A stretch of DNA of 64,000 nucleotides from contig NW_027191454.1 in NCBI RefSeq assembly GCF_011745625.1, forward strand, positions 1,178,001 to 1,242,000, written 5' to 3'. This stretch comes from Cladosporium halotolerans (lineage: Eukaryota). The translations under genes were made by a program, and so were the position numbers. Every line of letters begins with the position of its first letter. The first letter of the stretch is position 1. The notes beneath the pieces are model-generated. The model worked only from the letters and a program-made list of their open reading frames with translations. It was not told where the DNA came from and searched no databases. This document shows, in pieces, positions 34,241 through 38,276 of this stretch.

Positions 34241-35095
34241 TCAGCGTCTCTCAAAAGGTGACCGGCCTCCAACGATGTTGCCAGCAAACACACGCGATTT
34301 CCCTCGGGCCACTACGTTATCGTATGAATGCCGCCCACCTTGAGAGTCCTTCCACCCTGATTTCGCTGCTTCCTCCGAGACATAGTTACCGACCGTCATC
34401 TCAGCCTCATCAAAAGCTTCCATGTTTTTGTAAATGTGCTGCGACAATCGTTCGTCCACTTCTGATATCACGGCAGCCACTTCTTTGACCACTTCTTCTG
34501 GCTCTTCCAGTCGTTGTGGGCGAAGCATTTCGGCTTGCTTCTTCGCAATCTCGTCCAATTGGGCAGCGAAGGCGGGAAATAGGGCTTCAAGGCCTTGCAC
34601 CATCCGGGTAACGGTCTTGACCAGCTTTTGCAGCTTCGCTTCGTCTCGCAAGGCCCAGCGATATGCGTCCAAAAGTGGGACCCCCTCTCGGGTCTCAGTA
34701 AGTATCCTCCGAAACTTATCCGTCACCTGAGCAAGCGCCTTGTCACTTCTTTTCTTGCCAATGTTGGCTGCGTCAGACGTGTCGGCCGTACCGTCGTCGT
34801 TACTTGTGATCTGGTATCTCTCTCCAGTCGCCTGCGCTTCTTCTAGCCTCTCTTTGATCCGGGTCAAGCAGGCTTTGGCATCGAGGCCCTGTTTCTCGGT
34901 GCCCGAGATTTCTTTCTGTTGCCAGGTCACTCGACAGCAATCAAGCCGAGCACCCAGAAATGTCATCTGGAGTGCTAAGTCTTGGTAAGACTTGCTACAG
35001 TTGCGTCCTGAATCGATCCGATCGATCAGGCTGAGGCACTGTTCGAAGAGAGACGAAAGGGCGATGCCCCCGATGGCGAGGCCGGCGGCTTCCAT
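34241..35095 (-). CDS. HET-S-like cell-death effector: HeLo domain plus C-terminal two-repeat amyloid (prion-forming) domain
   Basis: Hydrophobic N-terminal helix MEAAGLAIGGIALSSLFEQC; HeLo C-terminal block RWALRDEAKLQKLV..V.GLEALFP; tail HIYKNMEAFDEAEMTVGN / HSYDNVVARGKSRVFAGN..GGRSPF. Confidence 0.88.
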   Translation of the reverse strand: MEAAGLAIGGIALSSLFEQCLSLIDRIDSGRNCSKSYQDLALQMTFLGARLDCCRVTWQQKEISGTEKQGLDAKACLTRIKERLEEAQATGERYQITSNDDGTADTSDAANIGKKRSDKALAQVTDKFRRILTETREGVPLLDAYRWALRDEAKLQKLVKTVTRMVQGLEALFPAFAAQLDEIAKKQAEMLRPQRLEEPEEVVKEVAAVISEVDERLSQHIYKNMEAFDEAEMTVGNYVSEEAAKSGWKDSQGGRHSYDNVVARGKSRVFAGNIVGGRSPFERR

Positions 35096-35369
35096 TTCTG
35101 CGCGCTCTTGAGAAGAGATAATTCTCGTGGTCCCTTGAGATTTTTGACTACAGCAACACAAACGTAGCAGAACAGTTGTTCGTGCATTCGGTGACGCTAC
35201 TTGAGAGACGCCAGCAGCGAAGGTCAGCTGAGGCAGCTGGATCGCGCCTCATCATGCACGTCTGCGTTGGCACGGCTGAATGGGCGTCTAAGCTCGCACC
35301 CGAGGCTTGCTTTGTCTTTACTCCCCAGTCGAACCGCTCTATAAAGGTACAACCAGAAAGTCAAGCAGG

Positions 35370-38276
35370 ATGGATGGCCTTGTGCCTCGAGCGAGCGGAC
35401 ACTCGTATGCCGACACCACCTTGATAAACAGTCAAGCGCAACTCGGCGATGTCTACAACTTCGATCTCGCTCGCGATGAGCGCATCAAGAAGCTCATCCT
35501 GGAGAGTCTGGCGTTTCCAGAGATGAGATGGCGGAAGGATATGATCAAGGAGCCACACAAGGAGAACTGGCTGTTCGGTGATTTTCGAAATTACAGATAT
35601 TCTTCGGAGGCCGATAAGATATCTTCAGCACGCACTGCTCTGATGCAATGGCTGGCCACGGAGAGATCGAGACAACCCTTCTACATATCTGGCAAACCTG
35701 GTTCTGGGAAATCCATGTTCATGAAGGACCTCAGGAATCACGAGCGTACGATTGCGGCTTTGTCAAACTGGGCCGGGAAGGACAAGTTGATAATTCTAGA
35801 CCACTACTTTTGGGTTGCGGGCAGAGTTTTGCAATCATCCTGGCTTGGCTGCTTGCGCACCCTGCTCCATGACTGTCTTTCAGCACTCAGCGCCGAAAAC
35901 AACATTGCTCTGTTGAAGACGATATGCGGCGAAAGATGGAACATCGACTTCCAGCACAGCTCCTGGAGCGTCAATGCTTTGACCAACACTCTCAAAAGAC
36001 TGCACGGAACTGATGGAGTCAAGATCTGCCTATTCCTCGACGGCCTGGACGAGTGTGTTCCTCAACAAGAGCAGGGTATCGTCATAGAGCGCTTGCTCGA
36101 AATTTGTGACTCTGACAATCTCAAACTTATTGGATCCAGCCGACCTTGGCCTTCTTTGACTCGGGCATTGGAAGCATCGCATCACATCTGTCTCGAGGAT
36201 CTATCACGGAATGATATGGCCGCCTACGTCAATGAAGGCCTTACAAGAGCATGGGCGACGCAGAATGTTAATTCCAACGTCAAAAACGACTCAAGAGCGT
36301 TGCGGGACCTGGTTTGTGAAGTTACCGACAAGTCTGAAGGGGTTTTTCTTTGGACTAGCCTTGTAATCGAGACTTTGGCAAGTCAAATACGAATGGGCAA
36401 GGAAATCGAATCTCTGTTTTCAACTCTCCAACACTTCCCAAAAGACCTTGAGGCCTACTACAAGACTATGATCTGGGAACGCGTTCCCGGGGTCAAAAAC
36501 AGCAAGAAGGACACGGCATCTGCGCTCTTCCTTGCAATAAATCTTGAAGAGCTTCTTGAGCCACGGGTGCTACGTGTCTTGAATGTCATACCGTACTTTC
36601 TTCTCAGTCAAGACAAACTTGGCCCAGATATGTCTGTCACGCCCTGTGTTCCACGGTGGCACACGCGCCAAGATGGAGTCATGATGCTGCAAAAAACGGA
36701 GCTCTATCTTGCAGAGACTTGCGGAGATGTTTTGACGATCTCAAAAGCACACAGGGCATCTGGGAATACAGTCCAGTTCTCCCACCGCACCATGTTGGAC
36801 TTCTTTAAGTCAGATGAAATGGCATCATTTTTAGCGCAGAACATTCCTCGACATTTTCTCCATCCGTCATTCGGCGACCAACTGAAAATGAAAGCGCTGG
36901 TGGCTTCATTTTCGTTCAAATCCGACAACTGCATGCCATTTGTCAACCGTCTAACTTTGCTCATAGAACATCTTCGTCAACTGAAAAATGCCGGGAAACG
37001 GCACAAAGGCCTTCTTTTCGAGTGTGCAGCGATGGCGGCCAGCAATTTGTTGGAAAACTGCACCTGCTGCGGTCGGTATCACGCCACACCCCAAGAGAGA
37101 CCACTTTTATTTGGCTTGTTTTTGGCTGGAACCGACCAGTATATGTCCGCACTCATACATATGTGGCCCCATGCTGTGCAAAGACCCCCGCTACTGGGTG
37201 ATGCGATGATGGCAGCGAAGTCTCCGATTGGATTGCGGTCCAAAATCGTCTCTCTTATTGGCGTACTCTTGGACACTGGCGCCGATCCTAACCAACGGTA
37301 TGATTACAGAAGTTTTGGATCTCACTCCATTTGGGAATTGTTTCTTGCAACTTGGAGACAGCTACGGCGTATCAGCGCAGACTCTGACGATCTGCAGTGT
37401 CTAACGCAAATTGCGGCGATGCTGATTCGACATGGCGCAACCACATGGATGGATTTTTGCATTTCACATAGCTGGGATTTGGACGTGCCCCGAGGTGGTT
37501 CCTGCATACGGAAGAATTTCGTATCAGTCATCAAAGACTGCATGTCCGGCCAAGACGAAAGAAATTTGATCAAGATTGCGAATGAGCATTCGGATAACCG
37601 TGATCTCGTGAACAGGAGGCAGAGGATCTTGGCTTTCCAGTCGTTACGATCTATGTTCCCATACCTGAGCGGCGGCAAAAGAGGGAGCCAATGCTTATCA
37701 CACTCCAGAACGGTCCGGGAGTTTCTTTTTGAGGTCCCCGCCGCTTTTGGCCCGGGGGAAATGGCGGTTGACAGACATCACGATATCAAACGATGGGCTC
37801 GTGAGCTAACGGCTTCCTGCCGCAATCCAGCTTTCATGTGCTGTGTTTGCAGCCTCGGCTCAAGCATGTCGAAAGTGAACGTCTGCCTCGACTGCATGGA
37901 TTTTCCAAATCTCTGCTACAGCTGCTTGGCTTCGGGAAACGAGATTCATGAGGGTCATCACTTTCTGAGAATTGGGGAGGGAGTCCTGCTCGCACAAGAG
38001 CCATATAAGCTCGAATGCGCGAAACTTTTGGCCTTGTCGGTGAACGACTGGTTTGAGGGGAGAGCGGGCGAGCACTGCATCGATATTGGAGCCAAAATCC
38101 CGGGAGCTCAAAATGCCGGAGGCAGCTCTCTCATATTACCGTCTTCTAGGCACGAAAGACGCAAGGCCATATCTGATGTGAACAAGTCAATCTGGCCTTT
38201 CGCAACTGAAGAGGGATATTTGAGCGACTATTATCCGGGCTGTCGACCTTTCATAATGGGTGTGGATAGGCTATGA
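35370..38276 (+). CDS. Fungal NLR: N-terminal amyloid motif, NACHT NTPase, degenerate ankyrin-like segment, ZZ-type zinc finger
   Basis: 968 aa from ATG 35370. ILESLAFPEM..R...I pre-NACHT motif, P-loop FYISGKPGSGKS, Walker B CLFLDGLDEC, SSRP, KSEGVFLW, VQFSHRT..DF, LLDTGADPN and a C-terminal Cys/His cluster. Confidence 0.88.
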   Translation: MDGLVPRASGHSYADTTLINSQAQLGDVYNFDLARDERIKKLILESLAFPEMRWRKDMIKEPHKENWLFGDFRNYRYSSEADKISSARTALMQWLATERSRQPFYISGKPGSGKSMFMKDLRNHERTIAALSNWAGKDKLIILDHYFWVAGRVLQSSWLGCLRTLLHDCLSALSAENNIALLKTICGERWNIDFQHSSWSVNALTNTLKRLHGTDGVKICLFLDGLDECVPQQEQGIVIERLLEICDSDNLKLIGSSRPWPSLTRALEASHHICLEDLSRNDMAAYVNEGLTRAWATQNVNSNVKNDSRALRDLVCEVTDKSEGVFLWTSLVIETLASQIRMGKEIESLFSTLQHFPKDLEAYYKTMIWERVPGVKNSKKDTASALFLAINLEELLEPRVLRVLNVIPYFLLSQDKLGPDMSVTPCVPRWHTRQDGVMMLQKTELYLAETCGDVLTISKAHRASGNTVQFSHRTMLDFFKSDEMASFLAQNIPRHFLHPSFGDQLKMKALVASFSFKSDNCMPFVNRLTLLIEHLRQLKNAGKRHKGLLFECAAMAASNLLENCTCCGRYHATPQERPLLFGLFLAGTDQYMSALIHMWPHAVQRPPLLGDAMMAAKSPIGLRSKIVSLIGVLLDTGADPNQRYDYRSFGSHSIWELFLATWRQLRRISADSDDLQCLTQIAAMLIRHGATTWMDFCISHSWDLDVPRGGSCIRKNFVSVIKDCMSGQDERNLIKIANEHSDNRDLVNRRQRILAFQSLRSMFPYLSGGKRGSQCLSHSRTVREFLFEVPAAFGPGEMAVDRHHDIKRWARELTASCRNPAFMCCVCSLGSSMSKVNVCLDCMDFPNLCYSCLASGNEIHEGHHFLRIGEGVLLAQEPYKLECAKLLALSVNDWFEGRAGEHCIDIGAKIPGAQNAGGSSLILPSSRHERRKAISDVNKSIWPFATEEGYLSDYYPGCRPFIMGVDRL

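Follow-up and report, generated by a model that had tools for sequence, protein, structure and literature searches.

The 64,000-nucleotide stretch of Cladosporium halotolerans DNA analysed here (contig NW_027191454.1, called the window below) carries a head-to-head gene pair that we read as an amyloid-signalling system of the HET-S/NWD2 type, belonging to the HRAM3 subfamily (HRAM, HET-s-related amyloid motif) and found in a Dothideomycete of the Cladosporium lineage. The NOD-like receptor (NLR) encoded by one gene would trigger the HeLo-domain effector encoded by its neighbour, a reading to which we give a probability of roughly two in three. The original prediction, made from the letters of the sequence, of an HRAM-type NLR/HeLo pair of a known system class is borne out: a HeLo domain, a NACHT domain, two pseudo-repeats in the effector tail (r1 and r2) and one motif copy at the N-terminus of the NLR (R0) are found in the head-to-head arrangement of the pairs described in PMC4518210 and PMC4344463. 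That the locus also is an intact cell-death module would follow by analogy from these domains and their arrangement. Of the regulated cell-death pathways of fungi, amyloid signalling between NLRs and HeLo proteins is understood best, and it parallels the RHIM-based necroptosis of animals. The class and the motif subfamily are already known; the instance in this species appears undescribed, and a literature search for HeLo/NLR amyloid systems of Cladosporium found nothing relevant. The two genes diverge across a spacer of 274 bp, as predicted, with the start codons of their open reading frames (ORFs) facing each other (Table 1).

The Pfam profile HeLo (PF14479) matches residues 5-189 of the effector with 82 bits (cut-off 23.2, E = 6.5e-23), in agreement with the domain read from the letters, and phmmer aligns the protein to the crystallised HeLo chain 2wvn of HET-s (E = 2.5e-8). 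The AlphaFold2 model of the effector, built from an alignment of 42 sequences (A1), has a mean predicted local distance difference test score (pLDDT) of 81.6, with values of 66-92 in the tail. Its four best hits in Foldseek are HeLo crystals of HET-s/S (2wvq, 2wvo, 2wvn), with E-values of 1e-4 to 6e-4, a probability of 1.00 and target-normalised TM-scores (TMt) of 0.57-0.61. The hydrophobic N-terminus, starting with MEAAGLAIGGIALSSLF, is a helix spanning residues 3-25 in the model. Searching 1.84 billion representative sequences with HMMER yields 263 relatives of the effector at E<=1e-3 (56 at E<=1e-10), the majority being 270-300 residues long and aligned from residue 2 to about 282; outside of its own 90% cluster, the nearest one has only 40% identity. 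The HeLo profile is matched by 42/42 members of A1, an alignment in which W147, G236 and G272 are invariant and the GG after r2 (G276, G277) is nearly invariant. The relative P0001, a protein of 283 residues, differs from the effector at 10 positions, none of them in r1 and one in r2 (I274V). A 3-bp deletion at window position 34794, around effector residue 100, is present in all four sequencing runs compared and matches this 283-residue form; it lies in an acidic linker of the HeLo domain that is modelled with low confidence.

The tail of the effector contains two pseudo-repeats offset by 36 residues and then GG..F, exactly as had been noticed in the letters: H220 opens HIYKNMEAFDEAEMTVGN, H256 opens HSYDNVVARGKSRVFAGN, and VGGRSPF comes next. 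Both repeats are 21 residues long and lie inside the last 80 residues of a HeLo protein shorter than 310 residues, the setting by which HRAMs are recognised; r1 and r2 are identical at 6/21 positions. The loop of 15 residues that separates them falls within the published range of 6-18 residues for HRAM loops, and a diglycine plus aromatic residue after r2 has likewise been described (PMC4518210). Among the 149 matches listed by HMMER, 79 carry at least one H-x15-G segment of 21 residues within their C-terminal 95 residues, and 42 carry two. The 129 H-x15-G segments from the tails of these 79 proteins make up the 21-column position-specific scoring matrix (PSSM) used below, and the pooled repeat consensus of the matches listed is xGHSYxNVxAxGxARVxxG[DN]xYGG. 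Hydrophobic or small residues occupy core positions 5, 8, 10, 16 and 18 of r1 (Y, M, A, M, V) and of r2 (Y, V, A, V, A), and the G at motif position 19 is invariant in both repeats across A1. Opposite charges occur in register at positions 6 (K/D), 13 (E/K) and 15 (E/R) of r1 and r2, whose net charges are -3 and +3, respectively.

Daskalov, Dyrka and Saupe 2015 (PMC4518210) tell HRAM subfamilies apart chiefly by the residue at motif position 3, with N marking HRAM1, Q marking HRAM2 and H marking HRAM3. Position 3 is H in all three copies of the locus (H220, H256 and H11 of the NLR) and the motif is therefore HRAM3 by the published definition, not a new variant; the suggestion that it might be undescribed has to be abandoned, H3 having been reported in 2015. 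In the AlphaFold2 model r1 folds into four strands (221-223, 226-227, 232-235 and 238-239) that recur exactly 36 residues on in r2. Foldseek superposes the tail on the fibril 2rnm, a solid-state nuclear magnetic resonance structure, with a probability of 1.00, a TMt of 0.59 and a root-mean-square deviation of 3.8 Å over 69 columns; the TMt to 2mus is 0.67. A phmmer-type sequence match also links effector residues 213-280 to the HET-s(218-289) fibril chains (E = 5e-4). The tail is thus predicted to form a two-rung beta-solenoid like that of the HET-s(218-289) fibril.

The third copy of the motif lies at the N-terminus of the NLR. The original prediction of a single related copy at this place holds, since NLR residues 11-29 read HSYADTTLINSQAQLGDVY; the side-by-side reading of the copies conceals a deletion of one residue, which leaves a spacing of 15 instead of 16 between H and G. 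R0 starts at NLR residue 9, within the range of residues 5-9 where HRAM-type NLR motifs usually start (PMC9815663). It carries H3, Y5 and G-D, and only 2/20 of its residues are charged, low charge being a reported trait of r0 motifs (PMC4518210). On the effector-derived PSSM, R0 reaches 20.9 bits with one gap (penalty of 4 bits) and -1.8 bits ungapped, and the gap can be placed anywhere over motif positions 8-13 at nearly equal score. A value of 20.9 bits is attained by 0/5000 shuffles of the first 45 NLR residues and, in NLR homologues, by 0/2137 blocks of 45 residues drawn from the protein bodies. When all six frames of the window are scanned, only r2, r1 and R0 exceed 20 bits, the next match having 17.3. 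In nine full-length relatives of the NLR, an HRAM3 copy without gaps occupies the same N-terminal place and scores 22.8-36 bits. Judged by the PSSM controls and, more strongly, by these same-place copies in the nine relatives, R0 is a genuine motif copy of 20 residues. The 17.3-bit match, at 41598-41657 (+), is a chance one in a GHEGAG-type segment (AGHEGAGVVVKVG) resembling a motif of zinc-type alcohol dehydrogenases, and shows the level of false positives of the motif.

Behind R0, the NLR gives Pfam matches to NACHT (29.8 bits for a cut-off of 26.7) and NPHP3_N (56.8 for 24.8), confirming the NACHT domain that had been read from the letters. Its relatives are P0002, with 94% identity, and the nine proteins mentioned above, with 33-36% identity over 89-97% of the length. 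Walker residues G108, K109, P110, S112, G113, K114, S115, D224, G225, D227 and E228 are invariant in the full-length MAFFT alignment of eleven NLR sequences (A2).

These features permit to propose a mechanism modelled on HET-S/NWD2, in which oligomerisation of the NLR leads to templating of the effector tail and to activation of the HeLo pore-former (PMC4344463). Ligand sensing by the NLR would fall to its helical and Cys/His C-terminal region, after which the NLR would oligomerise through its NACHT domain as known for STAND proteins (signal transduction ATPases with numerous domains). Oligomerisation would gather the R0 segments into a cross-beta stack resembling a beta-solenoid, in analogy with NWD2(3-23). 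This stack could template the unfolded effector tail, whose r1 and r2 are predicted to make two rungs with complementary charges. Folding of the tail would free the hydrophobic N-terminal helix of the HeLo domain, which, as in HET-S, could insert in the membrane and kill the cell.

The closest experimental counterpart is HET-S/NWD2 of Podospora anserina, an HRAM1 system (PMC4344463). Both loci combine a HeLo effector of about 285 residues, having two 21-residue repeats offset by 36 residues, a loop of 15 residues and an end made of GG plus an aromatic residue, with an adjoining NACHT NLR that has one N-terminal copy of the motif, and the predicted beta-solenoid fold is the same. HET-s structures matched by the effector are 2wvn, 2rnm and 2kj3; the HeLo domains of the two proteins share only about 21-22% identity in structural alignment. 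Unlike HET-S/NWD2, the pair in the window has H and not N at motif position 3 (HRAM3 versus HRAM1), an effector that matches the Pfam family PF11558 only below its cut-off, an R0 of 20 instead of 21 residues, and an NLR that gives no Pfam match to WD40 repeats and carries an unassigned helical and Cys/His C-terminal region. The HRAM3 pairs of Daskalov, Dyrka and Saupe 2015 (PMC4518210) have the same H3, Y/F5 and G-[DN] at positions 19-20, the double repeat on a HeLo protein of less than 310 residues and the adjoining NLR with its r0, and gapped motifs occur there too (r0 of Wesor1, r1 of Microsporum canis). The r0 printed there for the Dothideomycete Clafu1 (Cladosporium fulvum), RGHTYRGIGASGNAHVHLGDQ, resembles the R0 of the relatives of our NLR. 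R0 in the window is unusually divergent from its partner's repeats. Cladosporium halotolerans is not among the 29 species of Table 1 in that paper, which covers only species with at least two HRAM proteins.

HELLF/FNT1 of P. anserina, an HRAM5 system, follows the same gene-cluster logic and attains the beta-solenoid fold at low identity; experiments on it show that non-canonical HRAMs can be prions and triggers of cell death (10.1101/2020.07.06.188508). It differs from the present pair in that the HELLF domain is HeLo-like (HELL) instead of HeLo, and in its HRAM5 hallmarks, QxFG and QG, which our pair lacks. The NLR12 class (Dyrka et al. 2022, PMC9815663) shares with our NLR an HRAM3-like N-terminal motif that starts at about positions 5-9. 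NLR12 is described there mostly from Sordariomycetes and with single-copy motifs on PNP_UDP effectors, in contrast to the Dothideomycete and the double-repeat HeLo partner found here. The survey table of that paper lists no experiment on the HRAM3-like motif class, an experimental gap that a tractable HRAM3 pair would fill. The pair is a natural case of rung-length mismatch combined with low identity between receptor and effector motifs, and as such bears on the specificity of cross-seeding; in other respects it is what one would expect of a class already catalogued.

Several observations weigh against an NLR that triggers its neighbour. In the effector tail, the Pfam family HET-s_218-289 (PF11558) is matched below its cut-off (19.4 bits against 32.2, E = 0.0011), and we do not assign the effector to it. 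Only 8/42 members of A1 match this family at E<=0.01, in agreement with the published survey, where only 38/155 HRAM proteins do so (PMC4518210). Motif position 15 is R in r2, E in r1 and Q in R0; HRAMs prefer R or K, from which r1 departs, this being a preference and not a rule (PMC4518210). The predicted solenoid may be recall by AlphaFold2, and its agreement with HET-s is not fully independent because HET-s fibrils from the PDB are in the training data. On the NLR side, R0 lacks one residue compared to r1, r2 and the R0 copies of the nine relatives, and MAFFT opens a one-column gap after HSYAD in the NLR and P0002 relative to those nine. For R0 to stack in register on rungs of 21 residues, a bulge or an arc of reduced length would be required. 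R0 is identical to r1 at 4/20 and to r2 at 5/20 positions, all of them conserved in the family. When 150 effector tails (the neighbour and the 149 matches listed) are ordered by their likeness to R0, the neighbour ranks 89/150 with a 21-mer query and 70-78/150 with a 20-mer and gap penalties of 0, 4 and 8. Co-evolution of R0 specifically with its neighbour is therefore not visible in these sequences. The best match to R0 among the 150 tails, 12/20, is r1 of P0257 (residues ~222-242), a 284-residue HeLo protein with about 25% identity to the effector of the window. Moreover, HET-s and HELLF have nearly the same fold at 17% identity and do not cross-seed (10.1101/2020.07.06.188508), therefore a shared fold is no guarantee of templating. 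Evidence of expression is also equivocal. Putative RNA runs in which single contigs span both genes and the spacer are probably DNA. In one RNA library, five contigs (151-471 nt) fall on the locus: one lies on the 3' end of the effector gene and its downstream flank, one within the effector and three within the NLR; they are no proof of expression, as carry-over of DNA cannot be excluded.

Because R0 is short and resembles the repeats of the neighbouring effector only at family level, templating of this effector by the NLR is plausible but not assured. The tendency of an r0 to resemble the r1/r2 of its own partner most, attributed to concerted evolution, is a trend and not a defining rule (PMC4518210); R0 does not follow it, which lowers the functional claim and not the architectural one. 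A complex predicted from effector residues 210-284 and NLR residues 1-45 scored 0.00 for a mark of 0.34; alignments were unused and the partner fold was uncertain, and we count this score neither way.

The same data could be explained by a pair that is rewired or decaying, the best surviving alternative, which we nevertheless consider unlikely. R0 would have drifted or been replaced, so that the NLR triggers its neighbour weakly or not at all and may signal to an unlinked P0257-like effector, while the neighbour answers to another NLR. This would account for a one-residue deletion that the nine relatives do not have, for the low rank of the neighbour (70-89/150) and for the 12/20 match to r1 of P0257, which includes S-Q-A-Q at motif positions 14-17, a stretch that reads A-R-V-x in the family consensus. 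Furthermore, r2 of the window effector has a better fit to the R0 copies of P0010 and P0011, two relatives of the NLR (9/21 and 8/21), than to the R0 of its own NLR. This fit suggests that the NLR and effector lineages co-evolved; on our reading, the two clades were once cognate and R0 was altered specifically in the lineage of the window. Signalling between non-adjacent partners is, in addition, relatively frequent for the HRAM3-like motif of NLR12 (PMC9815663). Against such rewiring stand two unbroken ORFs and the retention of R0, r1 and r2 in relatives of about 97% nucleotide identity. Single contigs of two other sequencing runs carry the whole 4.3-kb pair at this identity (102 and 133 differing letters), and the only changes in length there are 3 bp inside the effector and 4 bp after the stop codon of the NLR. 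In P0001 and P0002, r1 and R0 are unchanged and r2 has only the I274V difference. Adjacent pairs of equally low r0/r1/r2 identity have also been published, one of them from Fusarium with 4/21 and 2/21 identities as counted from the printed rows, and the table of motifs includes one gap in the r0 of Westerdykella ornata (Wesor1) and two gaps in several Fusarium r1 and in the r1 of Microsporum canis (PMC4518210). Finally, the 64-kb window, to which the scan was confined, contains no other P0257-like repeat.

A bolder and doubtful idea is that the locus records a change of amyloid specificity. The NLR would have gained an uncharged R0 of 20 residues that matches the first repeat of the P0257-type lineage far better than it does the repeats of its neighbour, and either the shortened rung still templates the neighbour or the receptor is rewired to an unlinked effector; its C-terminal region would, in addition, be a type of sensor that belongs to no existing family. 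If true, a shortened rung templating a solenoid of 21-residue rungs would be a natural test of the register tolerance of HRAMs, or else the receptor would have been rewired to an unlinked effector while still lying physically beside its old partner.

An allorecognition prion of the het-s/het-S kind, with allelic variants that propagate the prion and cause heterokaryon incompatibility without the NLR, has the predicted fold of the tail in its favour, which is that of the HET-s prion domain. We regard it as improbable. The choice between P33 and H33 decides the HET-s/HET-S phenotype, and 'mutant D23A, P33H' figures in the title of a PDB entry. The residue of the effector aligned with P33 of HET-s and H33 of HET-S is N32, and most members of the family have N or H, not P. 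The 10 differences in P0001 spare r1 and amount to one conservative change in r2, and the [Het-s] prion allele is considered peculiar to Podospora. Chance adjacency of two genes with a coincidental motif, or of dead relics, finds some comfort in the low pairwise identity of R0 with r1 and r2 and is hardly credible in view of the PSSM shuffle, block and six-frame controls, the motif at the same N-terminal place in nine NLR relatives, the long, intact and conserved ORFs, and the published survey in which 98/155 HRAM HeLo genes adjoin an NLR (PMC4518210).

Table 1. Coordinates of the gene pair, its domains and motifs, and the flanking genes (positions in the window)
Feature	Position	Strand	Description
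Effector gene	34241..35095	-	ORF of 284 residues; stop codon 34241-34243; identical to public cluster member P0391
HeLo domain	34529..35083	-	effector residues 5-189; Pfam, phmmer, Foldseek, AlphaFold2
Pseudo-repeat r1	34382..34444	-	effector residues 218-238, SQHIYKNMEAFDEAEMTVGNY; PSSM 32.0 bits; G236 invariant in A1
Inter-repeat loop	34337..34381	-	effector residues 239-253, VSEEAAKSGWKDSQG; 15 residues
Pseudo-repeat r2	34274..34336	-	effector residues 254-274, GRHSYDNVVARGKSRVFAGNI; PSSM 38.8 bits; G272 invariant in A1
C-terminal segment VGGRSPFERR	34244..34273	-	diglycine and aromatic residue; G276, G277 nearly invariant in A1
Divergent intergenic region	35096..35369	.	274 bp; presumed shared promoter, as read from the sequence
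NLR gene	35370..38276	+	NACHT STAND ORF of 968 residues; Pfam matches and homologues
R0	35394..35453	+	NLR residues 9-28, SGHSYADTTLINSQAQLGDV; single HRAM3-like copy of 20 residues
NACHT / NPHP3_N domain	35640..36236	+	NLR residues 91-289; Pfam
Walker A GKPGSGKS	35691-35714	+	NLR residues 108-115
Walker B LFLDGLDE	36030-36053	+	NLR residues 221-228
Helical-repeat-like part of presumed sensor	36867..37607	+	NLR residues 500-746; helical in AlphaFold2, block pLDDT 63-90
Cys/His cluster	37812..37994	+	NLR residues 815-875; C839, C842, C852, H860 and H863 with F845 and P846; invariant in A2
SEC13 exon (flank)	33467..33946	+	E = 2e-62 to a Sec13 fusion chain; E = 2e-44 to yeast SEC13
CHCH twin-Cx9C ORF (flank), COX19-like candidate	39165..39713	-	26.4 bits, just below the Pfam cut-off of 27.2

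The presumed sensor of the NLR corresponds to no Pfam family. Pfam finds nothing on residues 500-968 except a chance-level match to DUF2746, none of the WD40, ANK or TPR repeat families is matched on the protein, and the ankyrin-like strings LLDTGADPNQ and LIRHGATT do not give a Pfam match. The AlphaFold2 model of the NLR, built from 11 sequences, has a mean pLDDT of 59; residues 500-746 come out as helices of moderate confidence, and confidence is poor elsewhere. Foldseek with the C-terminal region returns no match at E<=0.001, and VIA-align relates the helical part to designed, TOG, HEAT and ANK repeats with Z-scores of 9-14, a range that is non-specific for helical repeats. The Cys/His pattern CLDC..FP..C..C.......H..H is kept in all eleven full-length sequences. 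Residues 815-875 reach only 12.5 bits with the ZZ zinc finger profile (PF00569; cut-off 21.4, E = 0.13), and the AlphaFold2 confidence is low over the cluster, which may be a metal (zinc)-binding module of the sensor domain. P0002 has 58 differences from the NLR, of which 24 fall in the 266 residues 500-765 (9.0%; window 36867-37664), compared to about 2% in residues 1-99; this is suggestive of sensor diversification in residues 500-765.

Both genes had been predicted to be intronless. Their ORFs are indeed continuous and homologues align to them end to end; the public NLR model P0395 (404 residues), however, puts an intron of about 400 nt (36567-36966) in the NLR gene. P0395 equals the ORF for 399 residues, continues with NIFVN and a stop, and drops the C-terminal 569 residues of the ORF. 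The stretch from 36567 to 36966 holds columns that are invariant over the eleven homologues of A2, for example Y409, W430, E449, C451, G452, D453, H472, T474, D477 and F478, which makes the ORF of 968 residues the better model: it is probably the true product and the 404-residue public model wrong. A by-product of this analysis is, hence, a public gene model that appears to miss the C-terminal 569 residues of the NLR.

A search of metagenome contigs with A2 gave 2 loci out of 215 pattern matches, both encoding distant NLRs (29-32% identity), of which one has a long N-terminal domain and the other a broken frame. No HeLo gene lies beside either of them, so that they do not inform on the conservation of the pair. 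The NLR at 4230-6575 of L001 has 29% identity in the NACHT region and an N-terminal domain of about 300 residues in place of the short amyloid motif, which may represent a fused-effector architecture.

The pair was predicted to lie between the core genes SEC13 and COX19. SEC13 is identified by its matches (Table 1); the opposite flank is less certain, its ORF having a CHCH match just below the Pfam cut-off and no match in the PDB search, and its identity as COX19 is plausible from the sequence. The remainder of the window is composed of ordinary fungal housekeeping genes, coding for cohesin SCC3, UreD, an LDB19-type arrestin, an amidase, a kelch protein, a bHLH factor and PAP2. SCC3 shares 78% identity with its homologue of Cladosporium fusiforme, 77% with that of Cladosporium sp. 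NU13, and 50-57% with those of Friedmanniomyces, Oleoguttula, Zasmidium, Fulvia and other fungi, values that assign the window to a Dothideomycete related to Cladosporium. An NCBIfam search of the proteins gave no meaningful matches, as expected from a library of prokaryotic families. A TATAAA sequence is found in the spacer at 35340-35345, 25 nt upstream of the start codon of the NLR. Among the 16 ORFs of the window that were compared, the NLR has the lowest GC content (0.500, for a window mean of 0.56) and the lowest GC content at third codon positions (0.559), a value that for the effector (0.589) is also in the lower range.

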